Of a stretch of DNA of 36,437 bases, positions 6,339 to 29,233 are shown in pieces (position 1 is the first letter of the stretch; each line of letters starts with the position of its first letter). The notes under the pieces are model-generated. The model worked only from the letters and a program-made list of their open reading frames with translations. It did not search any database and was not told where the DNA came from. The position numbers and the translations under genes are program-made. Origin of the DNA: Actinomycetota bacterium (GTDB lineage Bacteria > Actinomycetota > Acidimicrobiia > Spongiisociales > UBA5794); contig JAYEIJ010000011.1 in NCBI GenBank assembly GCA_034660035.1, forward strand, positions 3,425-39,861. Reading direction: 5' to 3'.

Positions 6339-7789
6339 CCGAGATCGTTCCGAGCGGTGCCCTATCCGCCTCAACAGCAGATCTGTTGATCGTTCCAGTG
6401 TTCGCGGACCTGACCTGGGGCCCCGGCGCCGAGTCGACGGCCGATCAGTTGGGACCCTGGCTGGCCGACTACCTGGAGACACGCGAATTCACCGGAGCCG
6501 CCGGCCAACTCGTTGTTGTTCCCGGAGGTGCTCTCTCCTTCGGATCTGTGGCATTCGTCGGTCTCGGCGACGAAGTCGATGCGGAATCGCTTCGTCGAGC
6601 GGCCGGTACCGTCGGCCGGATGTCGGCCCCGTACCCGTCGACGGCAACGACCCTGCACCTGGTCGACGTCGAGGGAGCGATCGGGGCCGTGGCACTCGGC
6701 TATCTCCTCGGGGCCTACCGATTCGACGCGTATCGAAGTGAGCCGAAACCACGTTCCAACGAGCGTCTCGAGCTCCTCGAGGCAGGAGAGGGCGCAGGGG
6801 CGGAGATTCGGGATGCGGCGGCGATCGCCCGCGGCGTCGCCCTCGCTCGCGACCTGATCAACCAGCCGGCCGTAGACAAGTCACCCGAGGTTCTCGCCGG
6901 CCGAGCACGATCGCTCAGCGACAGCATCTCCGTCGAGATCGTAGATGAAGTTGAAGCAGCGGAGCGGGGGTACGGGGGGCTGCTCGCCGTCGGCGCCGGA
7001 GCCACGAATCCACCGCGGATGGTCATCATGAGCTACGGGCCTGCCGATGCCGGCGCGTTCGTTGCGTTCGTCGGCAAGGGGATCGTGTTCGACTCCGGGG
7101 GTCTCTCGCTGAAGACGGCGAAGGGTATGGAGGACATGAAGACCGACATGGCAGGAGCGGCCGCCGTCTACGGAGCCATGCAGGCGATCGCGGAACTCGA
7201 GCTTCCGGTCCGCGTGCTCGGAGTGACGCCCCTATCCGAGAACATGACGGGCGGGTCGGCGCAGCGCCCCGGTGACGTGTTCACCGCGTACAACGGGAAG
7301 ACGGTCGAAGTTCTCAACACCGACGCCGAGGGGCGCCTTGTGCTCGCCGACGGGCTGGGAATCGCTGCCGAGGCCGGACCCGACATGATCGTCGACATCG
7401 CCACCCTGACCGGGGCAGCGAAGGTCGCTCTCGGACCGACGGTGGGGGCGATCTTCGGCAACGATGACGGTGCCATCGCTGCGGTGGAGGCCGCAGCCAG
7501 GTTCGCCGGCGAGTCGATGTGGACGATGCCGTTCGAACGCTCATACCGATCTCTGCTCGATTCGCCGATCGCTGATCTGAAGAACATCGGTGACCAGTGG
7601 GGAGGAGCGATCACAGCAGCCCTCTTCCTCTCCGAGTTCGTGGATGATCGACCCTGGGTTCATCTCGACATCGCCGGCCCCGGCCGTGCCGACAAGACCG
7701 AGCACTACCTCCTGAAGGGTGCAACCGGGTTCACGGTCCGGACCCTGGTGGAACTAGCGAGGAAGATGGCGGGTGCAGTAGAGCAGTAG
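6335..7789 (+). CDS. pepA: Leucyl aminopeptidase (M17)
   Basis: VGKGIVFDSGG, MKTDMAGAA, NTDAEGRLVLAD, DIATLTGA, HLDIAG; GAGGAG RBS and ATGA overlap. Confidence 0.95.
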   Translation: MTEIVPSGALSASTADLLIVPVFADLTWGPGAESTADQLGPWLADYLETREFTGAAGQLVVVPGGALSFGSVAFVGLGDEVDAESLRRAAGTVGRMSAPYPSTATTLHLVDVEGAIGAVALGYLLGAYRFDAYRSEPKPRSNERLELLEAGEGAGAEIRDAAAIARGVALARDLINQPAVDKSPEVLAGRARSLSDSISVEIVDEVEAAERGYGGLLAVGAGATNPPRMVIMSYGPADAGAFVAFVGKGIVFDSGGLSLKTAKGMEDMKTDMAGAAAVYGAMQAIAELELPVRVLGVTPLSENMTGGSAQRPGDVFTAYNGKTVEVLNTDAEGRLVLADGLGIAAEAGPDMIVDIATLTGAAKVALGPTVGAIFGNDDGAIAAVEAAARFAGESMWTMPFERSYRSLLDSPIADLKNIGDQWGGAITAALFLSEFVDDRPWVHLDIAGPGRADKTEHYLLKGATGFTVRTLVELARKMAGAVEQ

Positions 7790-7857
7790 AGCAGTAGAGC
7801 AGGCAGAGTCTTCACTGACTACTGACTACTGACTACTGACTACTGACTACTGACTAC
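7775..7857. repeat. Two-armed short tandem repeat array A: (GCAGTAGA)x3 then (ACTGACT)x6
   Basis: Left arm 7775-7802, right arm 7814-7855; contains the stop codons of both convergent genes. Confidence 0.92.
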
Positions 7858-8898
7858 GTGCTCGATCGGGCAGGTCATCGATCGCTTGATCTTCAACGAG
7901 TTGAAACGGGCCGAACGGGCATCGTAGGTGATGAGGCGATCGATCAGGCGGTCCGGTGAACCGATCACGTGCTTGAGGGCCTCGACGGCCATCAGCGACC
8001 CGATCACGCCCGTCACCGCTCCGAGGACACCGACGTCGCTGCACGTGGTTTCGCTCTCCGGCAGATCCGGGAACAGGCATCGGTAGCACGGACCGACGCG
8101 AGGATCGAAGCCCGCCACGAGACCCTCCCACCGGATCGCGGCGCCGTGGATGAAGGGGATCCCTGCTCCGGCGGCGGCATCATTGACGGCGAGGCGACCG
8201 GCATAGTTGTCGGATGCATCGATCACCAGGTCATACCCGTCGACCAGGTTCCTTGCGTTCCTTTCGTCGAGCCAGGTCGCGATCGGGACGACGGTCACAT
8301 CGGAGTTGAGAGAGCGTGCGCTCGCCATCGCCGCGTCGGTCTTTCGCATGCCGACGGCGGCCTCACCGAAGAGCACCTGGCGCTGCAGGTTCGTCGAGTC
8401 CACGCGATCTCCGTCGACGATGGCGATGGTGCCGATTCCCGCTGCGGCGAGGTACTGGATCACCGGAGAACCGAGTCCGCCTGCACCGACAACCATCACG
8501 CGGGCGGCCCGGATCCTGCGTTGGCCGGCCGGTCCGAGATCGGCGAGTCGAAGATGCCGGTCGTATCGATTCGGTGGATCGTCGCCCGCGGTGACGATGG
8601 GTCGCTGTTCGGATCGCCAGCGGCGAAAGCCCCCGAGGAGTGACACGATGCCGGTGTAGCCGCGCTCTGAGAGAGACCTTGCGGCAACACGCGAGGCCTC
8701 CCCGATGCCGCAGTAGAGGAGGATCGGGGAGTCGGGGGAGGGGGCCAGTTCCGCGATCCGGTCCAGATCCATGCGATCGACCCGGATCGAGCCGACGAGT
8801 TCGTGGCTGGGACGATCGCCTTCGCGAAGGTCGATGATGGCGACGAACGAGTCGAGGACGACGTCGTCGGGTGCGATCTCGGTGGCCTTGGACTGCAT
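7840..8898 (-). CDS. moeB: MoeB/ThiF adenylyltransferase with N-terminal rhodanese domain
   Basis: Rhodanese LLYCGIG, SLLGGFRRW; ThiF GAGGLGS, DRVDSTNLQRQ, CYRC, CSDVGVLG; start at ATG 8898 (TAGCCT 7 nt upstream). Confidence 0.85.
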   Translation of the reverse strand: MQSKATEIAPDDVVLDSFVAIIDLREGDRPSHELVGSIRVDRMDLDRIAELAPSPDSPILLYCGIGEASRVAARSLSERGYTGIVSLLGGFRRWRSEQRPIVTAGDDPPNRYDRHLRLADLGPAGQRRIRAARVMVVGAGGLGSPVIQYLAAAGIGTIAIVDGDRVDSTNLQRQVLFGEAAVGMRKTDAAMASARSLNSDVTVVPIATWLDERNARNLVDGYDLVIDASDNYAGRLAVNDAAAGAGIPFIHGAAIRWEGLVAGFDPRVGPCYRCLFPDLPESETTCSDVGVLGAVTGVIGSLMAVEALKHVIGSPDRLIDRLITYDARSARFNSLKIKRSMTCPIEHVVSSQ

Positions 8899-8908
8899 GG
8901 CCGTGAGG

Positions 8909-9661
8909 CTACTCGGAGCCGGTGAGGCGGTCGACGAGCGTGGGCACGATCTCGCCGGCAGTGCCGTCGACGAGAACGGCTGCACGGAAGTCGTGATCGG
9001 TCTTGCCGCGGTTGATGATCACCATCGGGTGGCCGCGGTCGACCACGTCGAGCGGAACGAACGCTGCCGGGTAGACGGAGAGGGATGAGCCGATGACGAG
9101 TACGGCATCGGCTTGCTCCGCCATGTCCCACGCCCGCCTTGTAGCGTCCATCGGCAGGTCTTCGCCGAAGTAGACGATCGTGGTCTTCAGGATCCCATTG
9201 CATCGGTGGCACGGAGGATCCTCTTCGCCGGATTCCCATCGCTGCTCGATCTCATCGAACTCGGGTTCGTCACCGCAGGAGATGCAGTGGATCCGATTCG
9301 CGGATCCGTGCAGTTCGACGAGCGCTTCGGGTGCGAGGCCGGAAGCGATATGAAGACCATCGACGTTCTGCGTCACGCATCCGACCAGGTGGCCGGATTC
9401 CCACAGTCGGGTTACGGCGTGGTGTGCATAGTTCGGGGAGGCGTCGAGGTACGGGGAACGGAATCGCTTCCCCCACGACTCCCTTCGAAATCCCGGATCA
9501 GTGATGTAGCGATCGTATGTGTAGTCGGCCGGATCGAATCGCTTCCAGATCCCCTGGGGCCCGCGAAAATCCGGAATGCCTGACTCGGTCGATATGCCGG
9601 CGCCGGTGAATACGAGAATCCGTTTCCGTCCTGAGAGAACCTCTACGGCCCGTTCGATCAT
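8909..9661 (-). CDS. cobB: NAD-dependent protein deacylase (Sir2/CobB family)
   Basis: TGAGISTESGIPDFRG, TQNVDGLH, ELHG, CISC/CHRC Zn pairs, GSSLSVYPAA; alternative TTG start at 9676 overlapping the upstream stop. Confidence 0.92.
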   Translation of the reverse strand: MIERAVEVLSGRKRILVFTGAGISTESGIPDFRGPQGIWKRFDPADYTYDRYITDPGFRRESWGKRFRSPYLDASPNYAHHAVTRLWESGHLVGCVTQNVDGLHIASGLAPEALVELHGSANRIHCISCGDEPEFDEIEQRWESGEEDPPCHRCNGILKTTIVYFGEDLPMDATRRAWDMAEQADAVLVIGSSLSVYPAAFVPLDVVDRGHPMVIINRGKTDHDFRAAVLVDGTAGEIVPTLVDRLTGSE

Positions 9662-9672
9662 GGGTCCAGTGT

Positions 9673-10149
9673 TCAACCTCGGCGAGCGATTGGCAAGTCG
9701 ACCACTGCTCGACGGTGCTCCCGGCGCAGCGAAGGCGTCATCAGGCGGACATACCGGCTGGGGAGCGGGGGAATCAACACCCCGGTGAGGAGTTGCCCGC
9801 GACTCCATGAGACGAGACCCTCTCTCGAGAGGAGAGAGGTATTCGTTGGAAGGGGGAGGGAGCGGCCGCGTTGTGCGGCGACGGCAAGACGCATCAGGTC
9901 TGCGACCGCTCCCGGACCGATCGCTGCTGTCCAGAACTTGCGGACGTAGGGGTGATGAGACGGAAATCCCCACGACGTCCCTTCCCACACGGCCGGGTGT
10001 ATCTCAACGCGTGGAACAACCGTTGGGCGGACGCAGTCGGAGGGTTGACCGGCGACGCCCGGAGGTGGCGCGAGGTTCCTGGAACCGGTGGGAGGACGGG
10101 CACTGTTTCGAGGAACATCTCCGGACGTCGCCGTGACTGAAAGGGTCAT
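9673..10149 (-). CDS. Hypothetical protein (YVRKFWTAAIGP motif)
   Basis: Fills the gap between ABC and sirtuin genes co-directionally; folded-looking core GFPSHHPYVRKFWTAAIGPGAVADLMRL..PPLP..LRREH; start uncertain. Confidence 0.6.
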   Translation of the reverse strand: MTLSVTATSGDVPRNSARPPTGSRNLAPPPGVAGQPSDCVRPTVVPRVEIHPAVWEGTSWGFPSHHPYVRKFWTAAIGPGAVADLMRLAVAAQRGRSLPLPTNTSLLSREGLVSWSRGQLLTGVLIPPLPSRYVRLMTPSLRREHRRAVVDLPIARRG

Positions 10150-10216
10150 AGCTAATAGATATCAAATAACATCAGGTAACGTCAAGAGGTACGAACAAGG
10201 TCGCGAAACGTTCGCG

Positions 10217-11983
10217 TCAGCCGTCGACGGCGGAGCCGGTCTGGACTTCCCACAACGAGCGGTAGATCCCCGGGTGGTCGATCAGTTCGTCGTGCGTTCC
10301 CGATTCCACGATGGTCCCGGCGCCGACCACGTAGATCCGGTCCGCGTGACGGATGGTCGAGAGGCGATGCGCGATCACGACGACCGTCCGGTCATGCGCG
10401 ACCCTAGCCAGCGATCGTTGAATGGAGGCTTCCGTCTCGTTGTCGACTGCCGACGTTGCCTCATCCAGGAGGAGGATCGGGGACCCGGTGACAAGCGCCC
10501 GTGCGATCGAGAGGCGCTGCCGTTGACCGCCCGACAACTTCTGTCCCCGCTCTCCGACGATCGTGTCGTACCCGTGGGGGAGGGCTCCGATGAAGTCATG
10601 AGCTTCTGCCGTTCGGGCGGCGTCGCGGATCTCGAGGGGCGTCGCTTCGGGCCTCCCGTATGCGATGTTCTCTGCAACCGTTCCGTGGAACAGGAACACA
10701 TCCTGGGAAACGAGGGCCATGGCCCGGCGAACGTCGAACCGGCGAAGGGTTCGAAGATCGACGCCATCGAGCGTGACCGAACCGGTACTGGGGTCGTAGA
10801 ACCGGAGCAACAGCTTGATGAGCGTGGTCTTGCCCGAACCGGTCGGGCCGACGAACGCGGTTGTGCGACCGGCAGGGATATCGATCGTGACATCGTTGAG
10901 CACCGGGTAGCCGACGTCGTACGAGAACACCACCGAGGACAGTGCAAGCGATCCGTTGACCACTGCCAGGTCGCTGGGGCCGTCGACGAGGCGGGGCTCG
11001 GTGTCGAGCACCCCGAAGATCCGCTTCGAAGACGCCATCGCACGCTGGTACAGATCGAATGTCTGTCCCAGACGTGTGAGCGGCCAGAGGAGGCGCTGGG
11101 TGAGGAACACCATCACCGAGTACAACCCCACGCTCAGAGCGCCGTCGAGGACGAGGAAGCCACCCCAGACCAGGGTCGCGGTGAACCCGACGAGAATCGC
11201 CACCCTGATGAGCGGCGAGAACGCGGACGAAAGCCTGATAGCTGAGGCGTTGGCCACGCGGTATCGGTCGCTCTCAAGGGTGATCCGCTCTACCTCGCGG
11301 CGTTCAGCGGTGAACGCTTTGATCGTCGCGATGCCTCCCAGATTGTTGGCAAGCTGCGAGTTGATCGCTGCTGCCTGTTCCCTCACGACTTCGTACCGGG
11401 GTTCGATCCGGCGCTGGAACCGGAACGAGCCCCAGATGATGACCGGAATCGGCAGGAACGCGAGCCACGCAACCGTTGGGGCGATGATGAAGAACGCCGT
11501 TCCGATCAGGACGACCGTGGTGAACATCTGGATGACCTCGTTGGCGCCGATGTCGAGGAACCGCTCGAGTTGGTTCACGTCGTCGTTGAGCACTGCCATG
11601 AGGTCACCGGACCGACGATCTTCAAAGAAGCCAAGCTCGAGGTCTTGCATGTGCGCATACGAGTCGACCCGCAGGTCGTGCTGCATCGTCTGTGCGAGGT
11701 TGCGCCACGCCACGCCGAGGAGGTACTCGAAGAGCGATTCGAGGGCCCACACCACAAACGTGATGCCGGCGAGCACGACCAACTGCGTGCGCGGATCCGC
11801 GATCCCCAGCGAAGCCAGGAACGAGTCCTCACGGCGCACGACGACATCGACGGCCATTCCGATGAGGAACGGTGGGGCGATGTCCATCGCCTTGTTGAGG
11901 AACGACCACAGCGTGGCGGTCAGGATCCGACCGCGATACGGCCGCGCGTAGTTCCAGAGTCTGCTCAGAGGCGTTTCACTCAT
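10217..11983 (-). CDS. ABC exporter, fused permease + ATPase
   Basis: Hydrophobic N-half; Walker A GPTGSGKT, signature LSGGQRQR, Walker [16 protein letters not shown]. Confidence 0.95.
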
Positions 11984-12028
11984 GTCCAGCGAGGCTACCC
12001 GGCCGGACGAATCTAGGACTGCGAAGTC

Positions 12029-14548
12029 CTATCCACTCGGCGGGCTGACGGCTGCGGTCGGCTGAGTGCCGACGATCACCTTGATCGAATCCCCTTCAGT
12101 GACGACGGAACCGGGAGGAGGCTCGGTTCTTACCACGATGCCCCAGAGCTCGGCGTTCTCGACGGCGAGATACTCGACGGACCAGTCGAGCCGGATGCCG
12201 GTCTTGCTTTCGAAGTCCTGGAGTGCCGCGGTGACATCGTCCAGCGGTAGGCCGAGGAGATCGGGGGCGAGGATCACCGGCGGGACACCGGTTGACACGA
12301 GGACGGTCACTGACGCGCCTTGCTGGAGGGAGGTCCCGGCTCGTGGGGAGATGCTCAAGATCCGCCCTTTGGGTTCGGCGGAAGCCTTATCGACCACGTT
12401 GAGGCGGAGGCCTACGCCGTAGACCGCGTCGGCCATCTCCTTGAGGCTCATCCCGCTGAGGTCGGGTACTTCGGTTCTGGGCACGATCCGGTACACGTCG
12501 GCGCCGACCGGTTCTTCGGCGAAGTCAAGCGCGGGCAGATCACGGGTCGCGTATTCCATGAACTGTTTCCAGACCGGGGCGGCGACCGTGCCGCCGAACG
12601 CACGCTTCACGGACTGCTCCTCACCTTCCGCGTCGTTCCAGATCGTGAATCGCTCCATCGGGAGTGGGCGATCCGCGTATCCAACCCACACCGTTGTCGT
12701 GAGTTGAGGGACGAAACCTGCGAACCACACGTCAGTGTGATCGGTAGCAGTTCCGGTCTTTCCTGCTTGTGGCCGACCGATGTCGGCGCGCCTACCGGTA
12801 CCTTGCGACACGACCTTTTCGAGTGTGCTCACAACGACGGAGCCGATCGCACGCGAGAGGACGCGTTCTGACTCGATCTGATGATCGTAGATCACGTTGC
12901 CGGCGCTATCGGTGATTCGCTCCACGAGGTACGGCTCTACTCGATACCCGTAGTTGGCGATCGTCGAGTATGCCGATGCCATCTCAAGCGGACTGACGGA
13001 CGCGGCCCCGAGGGTGATCGAGTGGAACGGCTTGAGATACTGGGACGTGATCCCGAGCCGTCTGGCCGTGTCGACCACGGCGGCGGGTCCGATCGCATCG
13101 ATGAGCCGTGCGTAGACCGTGTTCGTCGAGTTGTAGGTCGCCGATTCGAGCGACTGGAGATCGTGTCCTGCATTGCCGCCGGCGTTCTCGACGGTCCACG
13201 TGTTCCCATCGGCAGAACACGGATACCCGCAATCGATGACAACGGGACTCGACCGGTCCCACATCGATGCGAGCGTCACAGGGCGGCCATCGAGATACCC
13301 GCTTTCGAGGGCGGCTGTGAGCGTGAACGGTTTGAACGCTGACCCGGCGTTCCGGGCGCTCCCGGTAGCAAGATCGTACGGGCGTTCCCCGGCTTCGAGG
13401 TTGTCCCCGTAGTCGATTCCGGACGCCACAACACGTATCGCTCCCGTCGTGTTGTCAACGGTGGCGATCGCACCGGTTGGTCCGTCGTACTCGGGACGGA
13501 ACCAGGATCGAAGGATCCGATTCGCCTCCGTCTGGAGGTCGTAGTCGACGGTGATGTCGATCTGGAGACCGCCACCGCCCGAACATGTCGTATCGGCGGC
13601 CGGGCAGCCGAAGAGCGCCCGCTTCCGCTCCTCATACGAATCTCCGAGTCCGTATTCATCGGAGTCGAGCAGTTGCTGGCGCACAGCGAGTATCACCAGG
13701 GGGTCCAGTTCTTCACGCACCGAGTGCGGGACGACGCCCAGTGGCGTGTTCTTCGCCGCTTCGCCTTCCTGCGCGGTCGTGAGCCCGTTGGACACCATTC
13801 GGTCGATGGTCTGGTTCCGAACGGCGATCGAGTTCTGGGGATTGTGCCGTGGGTGATAGAAGGTGGGGTTCCTGATCGGCGTCACGAGCGTCGCGGCCTC
13901 GGCAAGCGTCAGTTCGTCAAGGTCCTTGGCGAAGTACTCCTGAGCGGCCGCTTGGACGCCGTAGGCGTTCGAACCAAAGAACACCGAGTTCGCATAGAAC
14001 TCCAGGACCTGATCTTTCGTGTAACGGCGCTCGAGTTCGGCGGCAACCTGGGCCTCGCAGATCTTGCGCTCGAGGGTTCGATCGGCGGTGAGGAAGTTCT
14101 GTTTCACGACCTGCTGCGTGATCGTCGAGGCTCCGGTCTCGCCGCCACCGATCGCCGCTCTCACGATCGCCTTGAAGTCAACGCCCTCGTGTTCGTAGAA
14201 GGCCTTGTCTTCAGCCGAGAGTAAGGCACCGATTACCAGGTCCGGAATCTCGTCGAGTGGGATCGGCTGGCTGTTGCGTTCCGACAACTTGCCGAGTTCG
14301 ACACCGTCCGCTGTGGTCACACTCGACAGGCGTGATATGTCGGGGAAGGAGAGATCCATGGTCGAAGCATCACAGAAGTACTGATCCTCGAGGTCCTCAA
14401 CAGTTCCGAGCGCGGAGTTGGAACCCAGAAAGGCGAACAGCCCCAACCAGCCCGCTCCAACGACTGTGATAACCGCGAGGAGGATCAGACCGGGCAGACG
14501 CCGGCGCCGCCGGTCGTGCCGGTGAGCTTCATGGATGTTCGAATCCAT
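12029..14548 (-). CDS. Class A penicillin-binding protein with C-terminal PASTA-like domains
   Basis: TM after RRRRR; TG motifs EDKAFYEHEGVD, GASTITQQ, RKICE; TP motifs SAFK, STN, KTGT; VPDLSG / APDLLG repeats. Confidence 0.93.
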   Translation of the reverse strand: MDSNIHEAHRHDRRRRRLPGLILLAVITVVGAGWLGLFAFLGSNSALGTVEDLEDQYFCDASTMDLSFPDISRLSSVTTADGVELGKLSERNSQPIPLDEIPDLVIGALLSAEDKAFYEHEGVDFKAIVRAAIGGGETGASTITQQVVKQNFLTADRTLERKICEAQVAAELERRYTKDQVLEFYANSVFFGSNAYGVQAAAQEYFAKDLDELTLAEAATLVTPIRNPTFYHPRHNPQNSIAVRNQTIDRMVSNGLTTAQEGEAAKNTPLGVVPHSVREELDPLVILAVRQQLLDSDEYGLGDSYEERKRALFGCPAADTTCSGGGGLQIDITVDYDLQTEANRILRSWFRPEYDGPTGAIATVDNTTGAIRVVASGIDYGDNLEAGERPYDLATGSARNAGSAFKPFTLTAALESGYLDGRPVTLASMWDRSSPVVIDCGYPCSADGNTWTVENAGGNAGHDLQSLESATYNSTNTVYARLIDAIGPAAVVDTARRLGITSQYLKPFHSITLGAASVSPLEMASAYSTIANYGYRVEPYLVERITDSAGNVIYDHQIESERVLSRAIGSVVVSTLEKVVSQGTGRRADIGRPQAGKTGTATDHTDVWFAGFVPQLTTTVWVGYADRPLPMERFTIWNDAEGEEQSVKRAFGGTVAAPVWKQFMEYATRDLPALDFAEEPVGADVYRIVPRTEVPDLSGMSLKEMADAVYGVGLRLNVVDKASAEPKGRILSISPRAGTSLQQGASVTVLVSTGVPPVILAPDLLGLPLDDVTAALQDFESKTGIRLDWSVEYLAVENAELWGIVVRTEPPPGSVVTEGDSIKVIVGTQPTAAVSPPSG

Positions 14549-14649
14549 CGTGTAACACACGCTTCCGCTTGCGGACGAGTTCCCGCAGGTAGCATCGAAC
14601 TCGCGAAAAGCATAGGAACAGACTCCCGATAGACCCTGGATCCCCACAT

Positions 14650-16206: not shown

Positions 16207-16210
16207 ACCC

Positions 16211-16376
16211 AGCTTCGAGCTACCAGCGACCAGCTTCGAGCTACCAGCGACCAGCTTCGAGCTACCAGCTTCGAGCTACCAGCTTCGAGCTACCAGCACG
16301 GACATCCATGAGTGCGAAGGTATCAAGAACATGTCCCGTTTTCGGCTGGTAGCTGGCGGCTGGTAGCGGGTGGCTA
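16211..16376. repeat. Two-armed heptamer array B: 12 AGCnnCn units on +, about 4.5 related units on -
   Basis: AGCTTCG/AGCTACC/AGCGACC at 16211-16297; 16344-16376 reads AGCCACC CGCTACC AGCCGCC AGCTACC AGCC on the - strand. Confidence 0.93.
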
Positions 16377-18119: not shown

Positions 18120-18316
18120 AGCGAGCATCCTAGGAGTGTGCCGAGCGATGCCGGGCAGTTGAGATGGGCAACATGCATTGCTCGACAGGCTCCTGAGAAG
18201 GCTGGAAGGGAACTGTCCGGTCGTTGTCAGTCCGACCCCGGCGATCGGGACAGGGTTACCAATGGCACCGGTATCTGAGGTGGGTTCATAGGCTGATGCA
18301 TCTCATGGGTCTCTCC

Positions 18317-18967: not shown

Positions 18968-19022
18968 CGCACGTACGAAGATACGCGACCATCGTCGTGG
19001 TCAATCTCTCTGGATGGTGTAT

Positions 19023-20573: not shown

Positions 20574-20616
20574 GGTTCTCCCGGTAGTCTCATCTTCTGA
20601 CCATCGAGGTGGATGA

Positions 20617-22268: not shown

Positions 22269-22274
22269 TGGGTC

Positions 22275-22341
22275 TGAGCGTTGAGCGTTGAGCAGGAAGT
22301 GGCCGGTTGCGGTTTCCGTCTGGCTCATGGTTCATATCTCA
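22275..22341. repeat. Short two-armed heptamer array C
   Basis: TGAGCGT TGAGCGT TGAGC at 22275-22293 on +; TGAGATA TGAACCA TGAGCCA at 22341-22321 on -. Confidence 0.65.
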
Positions 22342-23034
22342 TCGGAACATATCTTCCTCTGGGGGTCGCACCAGGTCGGTTGCTCGTCCGTCCCCTGTCA
22401 GGTCGAGACCCCGCACGACGGCAGCCGGGATCTCGCCGGCTTTGCCCATGACGAGATCGGCGGCCGCAGCGATCTCATCGATGATGGCGATCTCTGTGAC
22501 GTTCATCGTGCGTCCCTGTGCGTCGGATTCGCCACGTAGGTCCAGGATCGACGGCAGTCCGGAGACTCCGATGGCGACGTCGACAAGTCCGCGTCGCCAT
22601 GGGCGACCGAACGTGTCCGTAACGACGACTGCGATCGAGACGCCCATCACCCGCTCGAGGTAGCGTCGGATGCGGTGCGCCGATCGGTCCGGATCGACGG
22701 GGAGGAGGACCGCCCATCCCTCTGCCACGTTGGAGCGATCGACCCCGGCGTTCGCACAGATGAATCCGTGATCTGTCTGAGTGATGAGGAGATCACTGCG
22801 CCGTCGCAAGATCGACCGGGCCTCCCGTTCGGCCAGTTCCCGGTAGGCGCGGTCATCGGAGATCTGCTCGATCCGGCCTTCGGCCTTCGAGACGACCTTA
22901 TGGGTTATCACGACGATGTCACGGTCCGAGAGCGCGATCTGCGATGCTTCGAGTCCATTGACGATGAGCGCCCCCAGGTCGTCGCCGGGTGCGATCTCGG
23001 GGATTCCGCGGATCGGGTGGATCTCGATGCTCAT
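22339..23034 (-). CDS. cofE: Coenzyme F420-0:L-glutamate ligase
   Basis: PEIAPGDDL, KVVSKAEG, ANAGVDRSN, LLPVDPD, TDTFGRPWRRG, DEIAAAADLV; ATGA overlap with cofD. Confidence 0.93.
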   Translation of the reverse strand: MSIEIHPIRGIPEIAPGDDLGALIVNGLEASQIALSDRDIVVITHKVVSKAEGRIEQISDDRAYRELAEREARSILRRRSDLLITQTDHGFICANAGVDRSNVAEGWAVLLPVDPDRSAHRIRRYLERVMGVSIAVVVTDTFGRPWRRGLVDVAIGVSGLPSILDLRGESDAQGRTMNVTEIAIIDEIAAAADLVMGKAGEIPAAVVRGLDLTGDGRATDLVRPPEEDMFR

Positions 23035-23993
23035 GTGAACGCCTCCTGGAACCATGTGGCGAAGCCGAGGGCCTCACTCTCAGAAACGAGGTGGGTGTCG
23101 GTGGCATGGACCATGACCGTCTCGAACAGATCGCGCACGTCCGATGCGTCTCCGCTGTCGATGACGAGGTCGGAGATGAGTCCCTCGTACGCCGCCAGGA
23201 CTCCGGCGTTCCCGGGGGGAAATCCGAGAGATGCCATCACTCGCTCGGCCGGCCCCTTGAGCGCCTTGCCTCCGAACAGGGGACTGATGGCGACGACACG
23301 CTCTTTCTCAGCGATGGCCTGTCGGATCTTCGGAACGGCGATGATCGGTCCGATCGACAGGGGCGGATTCGATGGGGCTATCACGACGATGTCCGCAGCA
23401 GCGATGGCCTCGACCACCCCCGGAGCGGGCAGTGCATGCTCGGCACCGGTGTACTCAACTTCTACGACGTGGTCACGGTGCCCCCGTACGACGAAGTACT
23501 CCTGGAACGCCAGCCACCTTCCGTCGTCGATCCGAAGCCTGGTTCGAACCGGATCGTTGGTGGCGGGCAGGACCCTTGTCTCGACGCCGAGTGCCGATCG
23601 AATCCGTTCGACGGCCTCGGTGAGGGTGCGGCCCGATGCGAGCATGTCGGTTCGAACCAGACATGCCGCCAGATCGCGATCACCCAGGCGGAAGGTGGTA
23701 TCGACGCCGAGCGCATCTAGGTGGTCCATCACAGTGGACGAGTCTCCTCCGATCCCCCAACCGTGGGGGCCCTCGATGCCGGCGAGCGTGTAGAGGACGG
23801 TATCGAGATCAGCCGACACGTGAACGCCGTGGATCAATTCGTCATCGCCCACGTTCCCGATCACCGTGAGTCGCGGGCCCGCGAAGACCCGCCTGAGAGA
23901 CCGCGCAGCGCGCGCCCCACCGACACCACCGGTCAGGAGAACGGCGAAAGGGTTGGAATATGTCGAGTTCGGTCCTTGAATGGCGTCGTTCAT
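23031..23993 (-). CDS. cofD: 2-phospho-L-lactate transferase
   Basis: LTGGVGGA, GNVGDD, DLDTVLYTLAG, FRLGDRD, FQEYFV, APSNPPLSIGPI, KGPA; GGAG before ATG 23993. Confidence 0.93.
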   Translation of the reverse strand: MNDAIQGPNSTYSNPFAVLLTGGVGGARAARSLRRVFAGPRLTVIGNVGDDELIHGVHVSADLDTVLYTLAGIEGPHGWGIGGDSSTVMDHLDALGVDTTFRLGDRDLAACLVRTDMLASGRTLTEAVERIRSALGVETRVLPATNDPVRTRLRIDDGRWLAFQEYFVVRGHRDHVVEVEYTGAEHALPAPGVVEAIAAADIVVIAPSNPPLSIGPIIAVPKIRQAIAEKERVVAISPLFGGKALKGPAERVMASLGFPPGNAGVLAAYEGLISDLVIDSGDASDVRDLFETVMVHATDTHLVSESEALGFATWFQEAFT

Positions 23994-26784
23994 GTCATCT
24001 CCAGAGGGCACACGCCCACTACCTGTCGCGGCCGCGATCTTCGCTCGACGCGGCGCCGATCTTCCAGCGACCATCGAATCGATCCAGCACCAAGTGTACG
24101 AAACACGGCGGATCATCGTGGTCGGTGGTGATGCGGACGCGCGCCGTCTTGCGGGCGCACACGGCATCGAGTGGTTCTCAGGCCTCGGCGGCGTCATCGA
24201 TGCCTGTAGCAACGTCACCCATCTGTGGCTCGTTCTCGACGGTGTGCTCCCTCGGCCCGACGCCCTCGGGGCGCTGGTGCGCGGACAGACGCGGCTCGAC
24301 GCTTCGGTCTCCGGATCGAAGATCCTCGATGAAGGAAACCCGGACCGATTGCTCTCCGCCGGATTTGCGACCGACGTGTTCGAGACCCCGTACACGGGAT
24401 TCGACGAGGATGAACTCGACCAGGGCCAGTACGACGTCGTTCGCGACGTCGCGGCCGTCGGGGGGCAGTCGATGCTCGTCCGGATGGATCTCGTTCGCGG
24501 TCTTGGTGGTCCGGATATCGCGATGGCGCCGTTCGCCGCGGCGGTCGACTTCTGTCAGCGAGCGCGCCTGCGCGGCGCCCGTGTGATCGTCGTCCCTTCG
24601 TCGGAGGTGCTCGGCGTCGACGACCATCAGGAACTTGATCGATGGCGAGAGCGCGCCGGGCGCATCCGAGCGATGATCAAGGTCTACGGACCGATGACGC
24701 TGCTCTGGGCGCTTCCGATGGCGTTCCTCTCCGGTTTCGCTCAATGCTTCCTGTCGCTCTTCCTCGGACGGTGGAGATTCTTCCACTGGCTCCGGGCGTG
24801 GCTGTGGAACCTGGTGAAACTGCCGGATACGCTCCGGAAGCGCCGGGCAGCGCGCAAAGGTCGCGTCGTCGGCGATCCCGAGCTCTTCAGGTATCAGATC
24901 AGCGGTTCAGTCGCACTCAGATCGGTCGTGGCGGAGTTGTCTGATCGGATCCGGCGAAGACTCCCGGGAGAAGATCGGCTCTCGATCGAGGCGGTCGGCG
25001 AGGAACTCAGGCGACCGTCGTTCATCGTGGGAGCGGTGGCCTTGCTCTTCGTCCTCCTCGCAACCAGGAGCATCTGGTTGGGGGGGTTGCCCGCCGTCGG
25101 GTACAGCCTCCCGTTCGGCGAATCGGGATCGAGCGCTGTCTCGGCATATGCCGGAGGGTGGAACCCGGCAGGACTTGGATCCGTGGAGCCGCTTCGTCCG
25201 TTCATCGCGCTTGCAGGTCTCATCCAGACCATCCTCTTTGATAACCGGCGTCTGGCCGAGTATGTACTGACAGCGGGATCGTGGCTTCTCGGAATCTGGG
25301 GAGTCGTTCGTCTCCTGCGAACATGGGGTGTTCGTGCGGTCGCGGGGACCCTTGCCGGTATCGTCTACGTGGCCGGCCCGGCCGCTCAGGCCGTAGCTCA
25401 GGAAACGGCGGTAGGGGCCGCGGTCGCCATAGGACTCATCCCTTGGTCGATACGTTTCGCTCTTGCCCCGTTCCCCGCCTCGTGGATAGCGAGAGCCGGT
25501 CGAGTGGCCGCCGTGGCCGTCCTCGCCGGCATAGCCGCCGTTCTGGCACCGCTTACCCTGCTTGTGCCGATCTTCGCGCTGCTCGTATGGGCACTCGTCA
25601 ACGTCACCGATGGCGCCGCGTGGAGGGCCGTCGGCATCTCGCTGGTCGGAGCGGTTCTCGCCGTTCCGTTGCTTTTCCCCTGGCTCGGCACCGCCGACCT
25701 CGGTCGCTTCGTCACCGACGGCGACGCCTACTGGGCAGTATCGGCCGTGACGGCCGTCATCGTCGGGATCGCCGCCGTAGCCGTACTCGTGGCAGCACCA
25801 CAACGGCTCGGCCTGGTAGCGAGTTGGGGTGCGATAGCGGTCGCTTTCGGCGTCCTCGTCGCTCGATCTGCGGGATTCGGGTCGGGTCGAGAAGTGGAGA
25901 GCGTGAGTCTTGTCGTCGTTTCTCTCGGGATCGCTCTCATCGTCGGCCCTTCGTTCGAAGCGATCACGCGGGTGCGTGAGGTGGGCGGCTGGCGCCGTAT
26001 CGTCGCAGGAGTTGCGGTAGCCGCTTCAGTCTTCCTCGTGGCGGCGTCGACCGCCACGGTCCTTGGGGGCCGCGCGGGATATCCCAGCGACGAGTACCGG
26101 GAGGCGTTCACGTTCTCGGCCGCTCGGCCCGGCGATCCAACCGCATCGAGGATCCTCGTGCTCGGGGCGCCGGGGAACCTCCCGGGCGACGATCGAATCG
26201 TCGAGGGTGCTGCGTACCGGCTCGTGTCTGCGCCGATGCCGGAGTCGTGGGAGGCGCACCTGCACACGGCGAGGCTTGGTGACGATGCTCTCGCGGAGAC
26301 GCTGAGAGTGATCATCGGCGGTGAGACGAAGCGAGCCGGTGAGATCCTTGCGCCGTTCGGGGTTCGATGGATCGTCATTCTCGAAGAAGCCGATGGGGAC
26401 ACATTCGCCGGTGCGTGGGAGACGATCTTCATCGGCCAGCTCGATCTGGTGCCGCTCGGCGGCGGGCTGTCCAACACGACGTTCGAGAACGAGGCGGAGA
26501 ACGCGGTTCGTGCCATCAGCGCCGACGGCTCGCCGTGGACGCGTGCCGGGACCGGCTACGAAGGCAAGCCGGAGTTCGGGGTTGGCCTCGAAGTGCGGGA
26601 GAACGCCAATGCTCGCTGGGGACCGGGCGAATGGGAGCAGATCGACTGGGCCAACGGAACAACGGCCGCCGTCGGTGCGGCCGGATTTGAGCCGATCGAT
26701 GCTCGTCGATTGCAGGCCATCGGCGCCGCGGTGTGGCTCGTAGCCCTGGTCGGTGTCGCATGGGGTGGAAGGAGATTCGGATGA
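23992..26784 (+). CDS. Large membrane protein with degenerate GT2-like N-terminal domain
   Basis: GT2-like remnants (ELDQGQYD..RDV, VDFCQRAR..GARVIVVP) followed by many hydrophobic helices; start 23980 or 23992; syntenic with DUF5719. Confidence 0.8.
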   Translation: MSSPEGTRPLPVAAAIFARRGADLPATIESIQHQVYETRRIIVVGGDADARRLAGAHGIEWFSGLGGVIDACSNVTHLWLVLDGVLPRPDALGALVRGQTRLDASVSGSKILDEGNPDRLLSAGFATDVFETPYTGFDEDELDQGQYDVVRDVAAVGGQSMLVRMDLVRGLGGPDIAMAPFAAAVDFCQRARLRGARVIVVPSSEVLGVDDHQELDRWRERAGRIRAMIKVYGPMTLLWALPMAFLSGFAQCFLSLFLGRWRFFHWLRAWLWNLVKLPDTLRKRRAARKGRVVGDPELFRYQISGSVALRSVVAELSDRIRRRLPGEDRLSIEAVGEELRRPSFIVGAVALLFVLLATRSIWLGGLPAVGYSLPFGESGSSAVSAYAGGWNPAGLGSVEPLRPFIALAGLIQTILFDNRRLAEYVLTAGSWLLGIWGVVRLLRTWGVRAVAGTLAGIVYVAGPAAQAVAQETAVGAAVAIGLIPWSIRFALAPFPASWIARAGRVAAVAVLAGIAAVLAPLTLLVPIFALLVWALVNVTDGAAWRAVGISLVGAVLAVPLLFPWLGTADLGRFVTDGDAYWAVSAVTAVIVGIAAVAVLVAAPQRLGLVASWGAIAVAFGVLVARSAGFGSGREVESVSLVVVSLGIALIVGPSFEAITRVREVGGWRRIVAGVAVAASVFLVAASTATVLGGRAGYPSDEYREAFTFSAARPGDPTASRILVLGAPGNLPGDDRIVEGAAYRLVSAPMPESWEAHLHTARLGDDALAETLRVIIGGETKRAGEILAPFGVRWIVILEEADGDTFAGAWETIFIGQLDLVPLGGGLSNTTFENEAENAVRAISADGSPWTRAGTGYEGKPEFGVGLEVRENANARWGPGEWEQIDWANGTTAAVGAAGFEPIDARRLQAIGAAVWLVALVGVAWGGRRFG

Positions 26785-28262
26785 GACGGGTGATCGCTGT
26801 CGTCATCGTGGCCGTTGCCGGAGTGCTCGCTCTGACCCAATCCGCCCCGATCGAGGTACGTCCTCCAGACTTCGGTGCACCGTCACCGGATGTGGGCGGG
26901 GCAACCGGTGATGCCACCGCCTGGTACTGCCCATGGGTCGCCTCAGGCGCACTCCGAGACTCGACGTTCAACCTGGTTTCGGTGATCGATATCAACGCCA
27001 CCATCACACTCCCGAATCTGAATCCGACGGAAGAGGCGGACGTTGCCGAGTTGCGCCTTCGCGGTCCAGGAGCTCGAAGCGTCTACTCCGGCGATATCGT
27101 CCGTCGCGGCGCATCGCCCGGCGTCGTGGAATTCGACGACGGACCGGCAGTCGCGACGACGGCCATGTGGTCGGAGGAGATCCTTACCGGGGATCGGTGC
27201 GTCGTATCCGTTCCGAAAGAATGGCATCTGATCGGTGGCATCACCGCGGAAGGATTCACCCTCGAGCTTCAGCTGTTCAATCCGTTCGCCGAGAGCGCCA
27301 AAGTGACCGTCGAGGCGATCACCGAATTCGGCAGGTCGCCGCTCGCGGGTTTCGAGAGTATCGATGTCCCCGGACGATCATGGCTGACGGAAGATCTCTC
27401 CCGCGTCATCCCATTCCTCGACATGGTCACGTTCACCGTGACATCCGAAAGCGGGATCGTCATCCCCACCCTTGTGCTCAATAGCGAAACCGATGAGGCG
27501 TCCTGGCCCGGCACAGGTCAGTCGACGACCTGGGATTTCCCGGTGACGAGCCTCCCGGGGTTGGAACCAACGTTGGTGATCTCGAACGCCGGCAGCGTTG
27601 GGGCAACGGTCGCGATCGACATCTTCACACCGGACGGCGCGATACCCGACGCCGATGGAAGGATCGTGTCACCGCTCGAACCGCTGCGTATCCACCTGGC
27701 GGATCTGGCCACGCCACCTTTCGCTGTACGCGTGCGATCGAACGCTCCCATCGGAGCGGTCATCCAGGCGGCTCCGGAGGGGACGTTCCCGAGGACCGAC
27801 GCTATGCCGCCTGAGGTCACGGACGATGAGGTCACGGACGATGAGGTCACGGATGATGAAGACGCCTCAGCAGACGAGGAGACGACCGACACGACCGAGG
27901 GCGAAGAAGTCGAAGAACCCGTCGTCTACGACGGTCTGGCAGCGATGTCTGGCAACGCCGACGTCCATGAGCGGTGGCTGGTTCCCGGTCTCGGAGTGGT
28001 GCCCGGAGCCGACACCTCGATCTGGATACTCAATCCTTCCGGCGATCCCGCGACGGTGACGGTGAGTCCGCTTGGCGTCTCCACAACGCGATCAGAGAAG
28101 ATCGTGATCCCCGCCGGTCGGTTCCTGGAGATCCCCGTCCCGGCACTCTCCGAGACCGGCAATTCGGGGATGCTTGTTGACGCGAGCCTGCCGGTGTCGG
28201 TCGCGGTGTCGATCGCCGGACCCCAGGGGGTGGCGTTCATCGGCGGTGTGGGAGTCGGATGA
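26781..28262 (+). CDS. Secreted/membrane-anchored DUF5719-like protein
   Basis: N-terminal hydrophobic helix, WYCP, repeated L.LFNP / I.ILNP beta-rich modules; ATGA overlap; synteny. Confidence 0.7.
   Translation: MRRVIAVVIVAVAGVLALTQSAPIEVRPPDFGAPSPDVGGATGDATAWYCPWVASGALRDSTFNLVSVIDINATITLPNLNPTEEADVAELRLRGPGARSVYSGDIVRRGASPGVVEFDDGPAVATTAMWSEEILTGDRCVVSVPKEWHLIGGITAEGFTLELQLFNPFAESAKVTVEAITEFGRSPLAGFESIDVPGRSWLTEDLSRVIPFLDMVTFTVTSESGIVIPTLVLNSETDEASWPGTGQSTTWDFPVTSLPGLEPTLVISNAGSVGATVAIDIFTPDGAIPDADGRIVSPLEPLRIHLADLATPPFAVRVRSNAPIGAVIQAAPEGTFPRTDAMPPEVTDDEVTDDEVTDDEDASADEETTDTTEGEEVEEPVVYDGLAAMSGNADVHERWLVPGLGVVPGADTSIWILNPSGDPATVTVSPLGVSTTRSEKIVIPAGRFLEIPVPALSETGNSGMLVDASLPVSVAVSIAGPQGVAFIGGVGVG
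27813..27857 (+). repeat. 15-bp in-frame tandem repeat (EVTDD)x3
   Basis: gaggtcacggacgat x2 + gaggtcacggatgat. Confidence 0.85.
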
Positions 28263-28308
28263 GAACCCCGAAATGCTTGGTCTGCACCGCTCCGGCCCCT
28301 AACTTCGC

Positions 28309-28530
28309 GTGGCTATGACCTGCGTCCGCTGCTCATCGATCTCCACCTCGTGTCTCTCGTATGCGTACGAGCGCCGCGAAGCATGGCTCGTCGACACCGA
28401 ACCTTCTCCGACTCCGGGCACTCGCTACCCGCTGTGCACCACTCACGCCGATCGCGTGACGCCACCGGTTGGATGGGTACTCCATGACCGCAGATCGCAG
28501 CCGACGTTGTTCGCTCCGGGTCTGGCATAG
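28309..28530 (+). CDS. DUF3499 family protein
   Basis: C..C..LSYAY..LC..HADRVTPPVGW matches the family pattern; usual position upstream of manB; start GTG 28309 or ATG 28315. Confidence 0.75.
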   Translation: MAMTCVRCSSISTSCLSYAYERREAWLVDTEPSPTPGTRYPLCTTHADRVTPPVGWVLHDRRSQPTLFAPGLA

Positions 28531-28539
28531 GGGGGCGGG

Positions 28540-28824
28540 ATGTCGATCGACCGGGACGTCCTCGAGGCCGTACGGGAGATGGATGAACACGAATTGCGGA
28601 GGCTCTACATCCTCGCGAAGGCTCGTCTCGAGGGACGCGGTGTGGATCTTCCAGGGTCGGGACCCGAGGTCAAGCTGCGGAAGCAGATGGTCCGGTGCGG
28701 GAAAGACGCCTGCAACCGGTGCCCCCACGGTCCCTACTGGTACGCCTACTGGAATGAGAATGGGAAGCGTCGATCGCGCTACTTGGGGAAACTGGAAGAT
28801 GTACCGGAACGGTTGAGTAGCTGA
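28540..28824 (+). CDS. Small Cys/His protein, DUF6788-like
   Basis: RCGKDACNRCPHGPYWYAYW..GKRRSRYLGK; G-rich RBS-like tract upstream. Confidence 0.75.
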   Translation: MSIDRDVLEAVREMDEHELRRLYILAKARLEGRGVDLPGSGPEVKLRKQMVRCGKDACNRCPHGPYWYAYWNENGKRRSRYLGKLEDVPERLSS

Positions 28825-28829
28825 GGATG

Positions 28830-28988
28830 AGCTACCAGCTACCAGCTACCAGCTACCAGCTGCCAGCTGCCAGCTGCCAGCTGCCAGCTGCCAGCCATGA
28901 GCTGTGGGCTGTGAGCTATGAGCCATGAGCAGGACGGGATGCGGACTACGGACTACGGACTACCTGCCGACCACCGACTACCGACTAC
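28830..28988. repeat. Two-armed heptamer array D
   Basis: AGCTACC x4, AGCTGCC x5, then AGCCATG AGCTGTG GGCTGTG AGCTATG AGCCATG (28830-28930); CGGACTA x3, CCGACCA, CCGACTA x2 (28942-28987). Confidence 0.94.
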
Positions 28989-28998
28989 TCTTTCTCCC

Positions 28999-29199: not shown

Positions 29200-29233
29200 A
29201 TTCCGGCCGACGGCCCTAATGGTCGGCCATCGC

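Follow-up and report, generated by a model that had tools for sequence, protein, structure and literature searches.

The four repeat loci in the window, a 36,437-nt stretch of an Actinomycetota genome (GCA_034660035.1, contig JAYEIJ010000011.1, positions 3,425 to 39,861), are probably gene-less members of a cassette system, in which units of about 0.5 kb carry a gene for a four-helix-bundle protein of the PF05635 family (23S-rRNA-IVS/Avd-type) between inward-facing arrays of 7- or 8-base repeats. The gene-less members are usually hairpin-forming. Period, unit families and polarity of the gene-less elements are those of the cassette arms, and such arms flank both intact PF05635 genes of this genome. 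A previous sequence-only reading had mentioned similar arms around four-helix-bundle genes, and this was borne out here, across the genus and also in other phyla.

All four window loci sit between protein-coding genes (Table 1). Their spacers of 11–45 nt contain no PF05635 gene, and the PF05635 matches of the genome are located on other contigs. The shared two-armed architecture that the sequence-only reading ascribed to all four is clear at loci 1, 2 and 4, but marginal at locus 3 (fold z of about -1.4). Likewise, the proposed period of about 7 bp holds for the heptamer arms but not for the left arm of locus 1, and the AG of the proposed AG[C/T] core is real, whereas A occurs besides C and T as the third base. 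Three convergent junctions of the window indeed carry an element, out of a total of four and not five according to our gene calls, which come from a home-made codon model. At locus 1 the last five codons and the stop (7787-7789) of an M17 aminopeptidase gene lie within the left arm, the C-terminus of the enzyme is unlike that of its relatives, and the right arm overlaps the stop of a ThiF/rhodanese gene (7840-8898, minus strand). At locus 2 the left arm begins 3 nt past the stop of the methylmalonyl-CoA mutase gene, and the right arm is directly adjoined by the stop of the biotin carboxylase/BCCP gene. Locus 4 belongs to a tandem junction, where a small zinc-ribbon ORF (28999-29199) follows shortly downstream, and its right arm stops 10 nt short of the ATG at 28999. 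Its left arms consist of blocks of different heptamers (28830-28895 and 28893-28930) behind an outermost degenerate 8-mer block, and this block order recurs in other composite elements. Two of the window loci sit at sites of gene loss: relatives have a CAP-domain gene at locus 1 and an Fpg/Nei gene flanked by two elements at the position of locus 3, and both genes are missing here, with no tblastn match in the assembly.

Table 1. Arms, spacers and outer block of the four repeat loci, in window positions.
Feature	Position	Strand	Description	Basis
Locus 1 left arm	7775..7802	+	3.5 copies of 8-mer, inward-reading	direct reading + TRF
Locus 1 spacer	7803..7813	.	11 nt; apical loop of predicted hairpin	
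Locus 1 right arm	7814..7857	-	6.3 copies of 7-mer, inward sense on minus strand	TRF
Locus 2 left arm	16209..16297	+	12.7 heptamers, 14- and 21-nt higher order	TRF
Locus 2 spacer	16298..16342	.	45 nt, with small inverted repeat of its own	
Locus 2 right arm	16343..16375	-	~4.5 heptamers, inward sense on minus strand	TRF
Locus 3 left arm	22275..22293	+	2.7 heptamers, marginal, TRF score 38	
Locus 3 right arm	22321..22341	-	degenerate; TRF makes no call	
Locus 4 outermost block	28815..28829	+	degenerate 8-mer; includes stop of upstream small ORF	
Locus 4 left arms	28830..28930	+	9.4 heptamers (two variant blocks), then 5.4 of third type	TRF
Locus 4 spacer	28931..28941	.	11 nt	
Locus 4 right arm	28942..28988	-	~6.9 heptamers belonging to the most common family of the genome; inward sense on minus strand	

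The window loci belong to a family that is spread over the whole genome. At a TRF score of at least 40 we found 334 arrays of period 7 and 85 of period 8, compared with 0 and 1, respectively, in the triplet-shuffled genome, and period 7 is over-represented relative to other periods as well as to chance. The arrays form 411 clusters and are mostly intergenic, with 52 of 462 being genic by our gene calls. Head-to-tail tandem units of 7 nt, as in STRR-like heptanucleotide SSRs, are the rule in the TRF output, and 8-nt exceptions exist. Adjacent arms are inverted copies of each other (distance of at most 2) in 98 of 237 pairs, whereas random pairing yields 14%. Across 94 inverted pairs nearly all unit types occur in a single orientation (e.g., 11:0, 10:0, 10:0, and 8:0), the exception being an AGCT-palindromic unit with 12:5, and A exceeds T in the left arm of 75 pairs versus 15. 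Among the classified adjacent arm pairs 132 of 189 face inward, and among pairs outside the training set of the classifier inward and outward orientation stand at 58 to 5, so the inward polarity is real. With 82 heptamer unit types sharing one period and occurring in inverted arm pairs of fixed polarity, the view of the sequence-only reading is upheld: these are dedicated elements, polar and two-armed, and do not stem from slippage of a single microsatellite. Cognate arms are present in 51 of 77 simple elements, which fold strongly (median z -5.3), whereas the folding of the 26 with unlike arms does not surpass that of shuffled sequences (median z -1.4).

Within the genus, 20 of 21 genomes have one to four PF05635 matches, and 19 of 28 PF05635 loci have 7- or 8-mer arrays on both sides (TRF), with five of the other nine being cut by a contig end. 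In other phyla, inverted arrays of the same period accompany 46 of 73 PF05635 loci, 45 of them with period 7. The sequence-only reading had suggested comparing filled and empty orthologous junctions, and both states were found at another junction of this genome, after a membrane-protein gene: among 14 informative genomes six have the PF05635 gene there (three forward, three reverse), seven have a gene-less two-armed element and one has a single arm. In the closest relative (G002) the gene is reversed and the arms differ from those of this genome by one base per unit. At the junction upstream of secA, where relatives harbor cassettes, four genes are forward and five reverse, mixed inside protein clades. 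The cassette centre thus flips between close relatives. Moreover, gene and arms are inherited together: a tree of 26 proteins resolves into separate clades for the individual arm types, and one site is occupied by two protein clades, each with its own arms. In five array-poor genomes just one arm type was detected, and all seven of their elements seen at the junctions upstream of Fpg/Nei and at the membrane-protein gene are of this type, although this count of kept sites with changed units is a hand tally and covers two independent lineages only. Furthermore, one cassette type is present in this genome in about 13 truncated copies, which form a decay series.

Unit families expand in single lineages, one unit having 69–157 matches in four genomes and 0–10 in the remaining 17 of the genus, while for another unit two genomes yield 92 and 124 matches and 14 yield 0–1. 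Arrays vary by whole units and turn over fast. A mechanism consistent with these observations would be slippage in register, which may lengthen and shorten the arrays, combined with template switching or recombination between the arms, which may keep them complementary and also invert the centre. Arrays at standing sites would be overwritten by the current unit of the genome, with cassettes or other arrays as donors for ectopic conversion, and gene-less forms could arise from loss of the centre together with this ectopic spread; the arrays would also mark sites of gene deletion. On the RNA level, two thirds of the simple elements are predicted to form long hairpins beside stop codons, which, by analogy to ORF-less rRNA intervening sequences, probably act incidentally as 3′-end or RNase III-type hairpins. 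As each protein clade keeps its own unit, the arms may also be a putative site of action of the four-helix-bundle protein. A further step would be that the PF05635 protein is a repeat-specific factor, each clade recognizing its own 7- or 8-base unit as ssDNA or RNA and driving the writing, spread or maintenance of arrays at hairpin-prone junctions; we regard this as a speculative and rather unlikely proposal.

Several observations count against the cassette reading. The 82 unit types face only two intact PF05635 genes, and 26 of the 77 simple elements have unlike arms. The agreement between protein clades and units may be mere common descent. Genome G006 has two-armed elements despite lacking a PF05635 match at 92% completeness, and G011 and G001 contain 124 and 35 matches, respectively, of a unit for which no gene of the cognate type was detected there. 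In no relative examined is any of the four window loci in the gene-filled state. Finally, the route from cassette to gene-less element was not directly seen, and inverted arms predict inversion and not deletion.

Some of these points are what one would expect if the arrays were an autonomous satellite that arises and spreads alone by slippage and ectopic recombination at hairpin-prone intergenic sites, with the gene landing or surviving preferentially in the loops, so that the window loci would not be derived from cassettes. The ratio of arrays to genes is about 200 to 1 here, arrays occur without a detected gene in G006 and array families without a detected cognate gene in G011 and G001, length variants differ by whole units, and at locus 4 the first units merge gradually with the native coding sequence, as if the array had been seeded on the spot. 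However, gene and arm type are co-inherited over protein divergences of 0.2–0.4 changes per site, the cassette interior is constant in size (408–456 nt), the association recurs in other phyla, and one would not expect a passenger gene to arrive with an arm type of its own at places where sister genomes hold another. An autonomous satellite is therefore unlikely in our view, yet it keeps a real share of the probability. The same cannot be said of an assembly artefact caused by short-read metagenome binning, the chance of which is practically negligible: 80 of 462 arrays are located at contig edges and the listed Logan contigs do not bridge loci 2 and 4, but locus 3 is spanned without a gap by Logan contigs from two runs, one contig of run X2 contains the left arm of locus 2 in a form 21 nt (three units) shorter, and the same architecture is present in relatives assembled into 7–10 contigs as well as in named isolate genomes of other phyla.

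It could also be assumed that the elements are bidirectional terminators or RNA-stabilizing hairpins, which the host selects at transcript ends. The sequence-only reading had placed them at gene 3′ ends, and this is correct as a tendency, since 98 of 278 convergent junctions (35%) are occupied, but so are 158 of 1323 tandem (12%) and 38 of 274 divergent ones (14%). Within tandem junctions 117 elements are nearer to the stop and 41 nearer to the next start; homotypic elements fold strongly, and an A-rich 5′ arm with a T-rich 3′ arm reads alike from both sides. However, intergenic spacers are tiny in this genome, and closeness to stops is partly forced because native spacers have only 6–30 nt. 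A simple pattern test for intrinsic terminators (GC-rich stem-loop plus T tract) yielded 12 sites compared with 8.8 expected, which is no clear overall excess, and no site at the four loci. Moreover, the orthologous junction is without any element in 8 of 16 relatives for locus 2 and in 9 of 20 for locus 4, and the elements are wholly unlike between genomes with 95% identical flanks. As part of the orthologous junctions lack the element and a third of the simple elements do not fold, the dedicated termination structure considered in the sequence-only reading is unlikely, and host selection for transcript ends in general appears improbable as the explanation. Since the elements are partly absent at orthologous junctions, turn over fast, lack target-site duplications and occupy two sites of gene loss, they are neither conserved terminators nor classical MITEs. 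Non-autonomous miniature transposons, moved by a transposase and with the arms as terminal inverted repeats, would find an argument in one cassette type that lies within an element with terminal inverted repeats of ~30 bp, flank duplications of 9–10 bp and about 10 or more copies. The ordinary two-armed elements have no flanking direct repeats (longest shared word on average 4.15, compared with 4.17 for random pairing, n=99), arm length and unit vary freely, and no ISL3 transposase domain was found in the assembly, which makes this explanation very improbable.

Among related systems, PF05635 heptamer-armed cassettes are found at the same junctions as gene-less elements in sister genomes. In 23S rRNA intervening sequences inverted flanks form a long stem that encloses a PF05635 gene in some cases and a short loop in others, and forms with and without ORF coexist. 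Those sequences are part of rRNA helices, whereas the elements described here lie between protein-coding genes, have arms of tandem heptamers and occur in an assembly without any 23S gene. The assembly likewise contains no RVT_1 match that would point to a diversity-generating retroelement (Avd) context. The likeness to cyanobacterial STRR noted in the sequence-only reading is apt, as the STRR of heterocystous cyanobacteria also have period 7, several unit types and intergenic positions; in the available descriptions, however, they are dispersed direct arrays and not polar two-armed units or cassette arms. REP/BIME elements and MITEs are similarly abundant intergenic inverted repeats with hairpin potential and single-lineage expansion, but, unlike them, the elements described here have no fixed consensus, are microsatellite-like inside and lack target-site duplications. 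According to passages on Xanthomonas campestris and X. axonopodis, convergent pairs of GGGAATC heptamers on opposite strands are present there as well, with 70 in Xcc and 75 in Xac (Rehm et al., 2015; PMC4692102). These repeats are described as mostly intergenic, nearer to the upstream ORF (28 nt on average), overlapping stop codons, variable between close species, transcribed and without link to IS elements (PMC4692102). They have one G-rich unit, read as G-quadruplex-forming, whereas units with G3-4 are absent from the lists of common unit types among the 82 found here, and the passages of that paper connect no gene with the space between the arms. More generally, heptamers are described as the most abundant SSR class in many genomes, including some Actinobacteria, and a 7-nt polymerase slippage has been proposed (PMC4679880; PMC4692102). 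While heptamer arrays and convergent pairs are thus already published, we found no link between a PF05635 gene and heptamer arms in the literature. The nearest solved structure to this protein family is XCC0516 from X. campestris.

To our knowledge, heptanucleotide repeats have no accepted origin or role in prokaryotes, and we know of no function outside diversity-generating retroelements for the widespread PF05635 proteins (rRNA intervening-sequence protein, Avd relatives). The genus is a compact natural experiment that ties both together, with about 400 arrays in a 2.5-Mb genome and one to four cassettes per genome. Since it offers orthologous sites in both the filled and the empty state, inversions among close relatives and unit families that track protein clades, experiments on binding, processing and repeat dynamics can be designed directly. 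In practice, short-read assemblies break at the arrays, which also rewrite the 3′ ends and start regions of genes and coincide with gene loss. If the PF05635 protein were indeed a repeat-specific factor, the heptamer “satellites” of many bacterial genomes would be the footprint of the cassette types that a lineage has hosted, which would explain the long-noted excess of heptanucleotides in prokaryotes and provide a function for the rRNA-IVS/Avd family of proteins.

The inward-facing repeat arrays belong to a family that extends over the whole assembly (2.47 Mb in 211 contigs, 63% G+C, 93% complete). At a TRF score of at least 40 the assembly contains 334 period-7 and 85 period-8 arrays, whereas a control shuffled by triplets within 300-nt blocks contains none of period 7 and one of period 8. 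At a score of at least 36, the 427 period-7 arrays comprise 82 different units, and the arrays form 411 clusters, 144 of which span at least 80 bp. Out of 462 period-7 arrays 80 touch a contig edge, so that the arrays break the assembly and rank among the main reasons for which this and the sister assemblies are fragmented. Among 237 adjacent arm pairs, inverted copies are closer than direct ones in 122, direct copies in 62, with a tie in 53, and in 98 pairs the two arms match as inverted copies with no more than two mismatches per unit, compared with 14% in random pairing. The 94 clearest pairs use a single orientation for nearly every unit type, with the inward reading starting with AG followed by C, T or A; the exception is a unit containing AGCT, with orientations of 12:5. 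In the same pairs A outnumbers T in the left arm in 75 cases versus 15. A 3-mer classifier trained on these 94 pairs and applied to the remaining adjacent pairs assigned 58 as inward, 18 + 15 as tandem and 5 as outward. Therefore the inward-facing AG core, which the sequence-only reading had described for four loci, characterises the whole family, and orientation is non-random in the period-7 scan that it had proposed. The observation is real and general. Among 77 simple inward pairs, the 51 with cognate arms have a median fold z of -5.3 (46 below -2), and the 26 with unlike arms fold no better than shuffles (median z -1.4).

The loci in the window were inspected directly and with TRF (see the table). 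The proposed architecture of two heptamer arms is clear at loci 1, 2 and 4, with 8-mers in the left arm of locus 1; at locus 3 it is marginal (2.7 copies in the left arm, right arm degenerate). Locus 4 is a composite element. The RNA folds of loci 1 and 2 beat dinucleotide shuffles (z -2.4 to -4.3), the two strands of locus 4 reach z -3.0 and -1.8, and locus 3 is no better than its shuffles (z about -1.4). By eye, unit variants are not mirror-symmetric between the arms of locus 2 and of example elements. An Rfam search of the whole window returned no family at gathering score, and a terminator and promoter consensus scan of 7000-26999 placed no site at the loci, with counts close to those of shuffles. 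In a contig from a different public run the left arm of locus 2 is exactly three units shorter than in the window, consistent with in-register slippage. In a comparison over 15500-29500, loci 2 and 4 were bridged by none of the listed public-run contigs, and depth at locus 4 is inflated through look-alike arrays elsewhere. The public runs listed as containing this DNA include brine metagenomes, and no RNA run is among them. A 15-bp tandem repeat at 27812-27859 (3.2 copies, 96% match), within the ORF 26760-28262, does not belong to the heptamer family.

Repeat arms and spacers of the window loci, and places of the MITE-like family on other contigs (C numbers) of this genome
Feature	Position	Description
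Locus 1, left arm	7775-7802	3.5 copies of an 8-mer (TRF)
Locus 1, spacer	between the arms 7775-7802 and 7814-7857	11 nt
Locus 1, right arm	7814-7857	6.3 copies of a 7-mer; minus-strand reading resembles the left unit
Locus 2, left arm	16209-16297	12.7 heptamers, with 14- and 21-nt higher order
Locus 2, spacer		45 nt
Locus 2, right arm	16343-16375	about 4.5 inverted heptamers
Locus 4, left, one heptamer in two variant blocks	28830-28895	preceded by a degenerate 8-mer block
Locus 4, left, third heptamer type	28893-28930	followed by an 11-nt spacer
Locus 4, right arm	28942-28988	other strand; commonest heptamer family in the genome
MITE-like family, outside the window	C7:~700-1050; C45:~36450-36850; C105:~6650-7000; C156:~4500-4850; C74; C75; C72; C169	

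The genes bordering the loci are ordinary housekeeping genes: an M17 aminopeptidase and a ThiF/rhodanese protein at locus 1, methylmalonyl-CoA mutase and biotin carboxylase/BCCP at locus 2, an NAD-epimerase and an F420 gamma-glutamyl ligase at locus 3, and at locus 4 a small ORF and a conserved zinc-ribbon ORF of 66 residues (28999-29199), which begins 10 nt past the right arm. It had been claimed that three of five convergent junctions in the window carry an element; three do, but according to our own codon-usage gene calls the window has four such junctions, and the junction of locus 4 is a tandem one. Genome-wide, an element is present at 98 of the 278 convergent junctions, at 158 of the 1323 tandem ones and at 38 of the 274 divergent ones. 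The elements in tandem junctions lie nearer to the upstream stop in 117 cases versus 41 nearer to the next start, and 80 of the 158 overlap the stop or lie within 10 nt of it. This proximity is partly forced, since the corresponding native spacers of relatives measure only 6-30 nt.

The sequence-only reading had also pointed to similar arms around four-helix-bundle genes, and this proved correct. The genome contains two intact PF05635 genes (23S-rRNA-IVS/Avd type; E 3e-36 and 6e-32) and one fragment, and both intact genes are flanked by inverted heptamer arrays with the inward polarity seen elsewhere in the family. PF05635 matches occur in 20 of 21 genomes of the genus (1-4 per genome), and according to TRF 7/8-mer arrays stand on both sides in 19 of 28 genus loci, five of the other nine being cut by a contig end. 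The distance between the arms of these cassettes is 408-456 nt in 19/19. A profile built from 12 genus proteins found at least 595 relatives in named genomes. Among the best 80 of these, 73 had at least 250 nt on each side; tandem repeats were present on both sides in 54, on one side only in 17 and on neither in 2, and same-period inverted units were found at 46 of the 73 loci, 45 times with period 7. In eight cassettes (L001, L002, L020, L022, L025, L027, L029, L038) a TG-N-TA word is conserved about 10-15 nt 5' of the GTG/ATG start, and no Shine-Dalgarno sequence was found in the 30 nt upstream of these genes. The word before the start suggests that the genes have their own promoter and a leaderless mRNA start. 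Among solved structures the closest are 2gsc (E 7e-34; XCC0516 from Xanthomonas campestris) and 2rld, which are of uncharacterised proteins and have five chains. No match to a reverse transcriptase was found in the 93%-complete assembly, which argues that the PF05635 genes are not Avd genes of a DGR; 23S rRNA likewise had no match there. A telomerase-like internal template was rejected: matches to a cassette's own unit (1.5 copies) numbered 1 in 19 cassette interiors versus 2.0 for units of other cassettes.

A comparison of orthologous junctions, as had been proposed, revealed filled and gene-less sites at the junction after a membrane-protein gene outside the window (the membrane-gene junction). 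Among 14 informative genomes of the genus (G numbers), six have the gene, forward in G000, G003 and G001 and reverse in G002, G007 and G032; seven have gene-less two-armed elements (G016, G017, G013, G015, G004, G010, G006), and only G012 has a single arm. In the closest relative, G002, whose flanks are 89-96% identical at this site, the gene is inverted and the arms differ by one base per unit from those of this genome. A PF05635 gene also lies between secA and a LuxR-type regulator gene in nine genomes, four times forward and five times reverse, with orientations mixed within protein clades. Together, the orientations at both junctions imply at least four flips, as would be expected if inverted arms recombine. 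In this genome the site upstream of secA is a 100-N scaffold gap (C11:41458-41557), about 1.6 kb past the end of the window, which may hide a third cassette. A maximum-likelihood tree of 26 proteins, with strong support on 10 of 23 inner branches, groups the proteins by arm-unit type, one clade for each. Two protein clades with correspondingly different arms occur at the membrane-gene junction, and one clade retains its arm type across different sites. The protein of this genome clusters with that of G003, where flank identity is 76%, rather than with the proteins of G007 and G032 (85-89%), which shows that the history of the cassette is discordant with that of its flanks. Gene and arms are thus linked; because relatives share labels, the agreement of clade and arm type is to be read as linkage, co-evolution not being demonstrated by it.

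At the locus 2 site a two-armed element like that of this genome occurs in G005 only, G002, at 95% flank identity, has just one array, made of related 8-mers, other arrays occur in G018, G007, G032 and G008 and a degenerate one in G011, and no element was found in 8 of 16 genomes. The locus 4 site bears an element with various units in 11 of 20 genomes; the other nine have none, with a native spacer of 25-30 nt that includes a ribosome-binding site. Where the element is present, the C-terminus of the upstream gene and the leader of the downstream gene are rewritten, and repeat sequence replaces, in the 11 element-bearing genomes, the GGGAGG ribosome-binding site that precedes the zinc-ribbon ORF in element-less relatives. 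Unit families are lineage-specific as well: one unit has 69-157 matches in G009, G015, G017 and G013 and 0-10 in the remaining 17 genomes, and another has 92 in this genome, 124 in G011, 35 in G001, 20 in G003 and 0-1 in 14 genomes. A 200-kb sample of G018 contains 13 arrays of period 7 and 17 of period 8, most of them of the 8-mer type found in its own cassette, and one of G016 contains seven and two, several of its own cassette's type, compared with means of 37.5 and 9.8 per 200 kb in this genome. In the five array-poor genomes in which just one arm type was detected, that type is found in 7/7 elements at two genus-wide junctions, a hand tally that represents at most two independent lineages. 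From turnover and arm types it follows that the units change at sites that are retained. The idea that every array family strictly requires a resident cognate gene was rejected, as it is contradicted by G011 and G001, in which the cognate gene of the abundant unit family was not detected, and by G006, which has elements but no detected PF05635 gene. The conclusions drawn here do not depend on G021, an unpublished genome.

Ordinary elements are not classical transposon insertions, since flanking direct repeats are absent (longest shared word 4.15 on average versus 4.17 in random pairing, n=99). About 13 truncated copies of one cassette type were found in this genome by tblastn, with 21-75 C-terminal codons kept. 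Several lie within a MITE-like element of about 10 or more copies, which has terminal inverted repeats of about 30 bp and flank duplications of 9-10 bp. Its interior combines irregular heptamer words with the promoter of a PF05635 gene and roughly the last 23 of that gene's codons; G031 has an intact relative of this gene. No ISL3 transposase match was found in the 93%-complete assembly.

Heptamer arrays of this kind have a precedent in Xanthomonas, for which Rehm et al. (2015; PMC4692102) report GGGAATC arrays with 70 convergent pairs in Xcc and 75 in Xac. In their account the arrays are transcribed, lie near the upstream ORF, overlap stop codons and differ from one species to another, and they are interpreted as G-quadruplex motifs. 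A general excess of heptanucleotide repeats and the idea of polymerase slippage are cited there and by MacGregor (2015; PMC4679880). The source species of XCC0516 is the same one for which convergent GGGAATC pairs have been published. In the literature found on heptanucleotide repeats, STRR, the PF05635/TIGR02436/IVS protein and intergenic hairpins, with PMC4692102 considered apart from its supplementary gene lists, nothing ties PF05635 genes to heptamer arms.

Genes have been lost at two of the window arrays. A CAP-domain, Thr/Pro-rich secreted-protein gene separates the aminopeptidase gene from its neighbour in all nine relatives examined (L006-L015); at locus 1 (7775-7857) it is missing, and the aminopeptidase gene runs into the left arm, with its last residues altered. 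Similarly, in 12 of 15 relatives (L206-L224) a Fpg/Nei glycosylase gene bracketed by two elements occupies the locus 3 site, and this gene is missing from this genome (22268-22339), G032 and G008. For both genes tblastn gave no hit elsewhere in the 93%-complete assembly. In our best reading, the elements of the window belong to the PF05635 cassette system as members without a gene. Slippage would maintain and reshape such elements, as would recombination, either between arms or between one element and another; any effects of their hairpins on nearby transcripts would be incidental, and the elements would tend to promote deletions.
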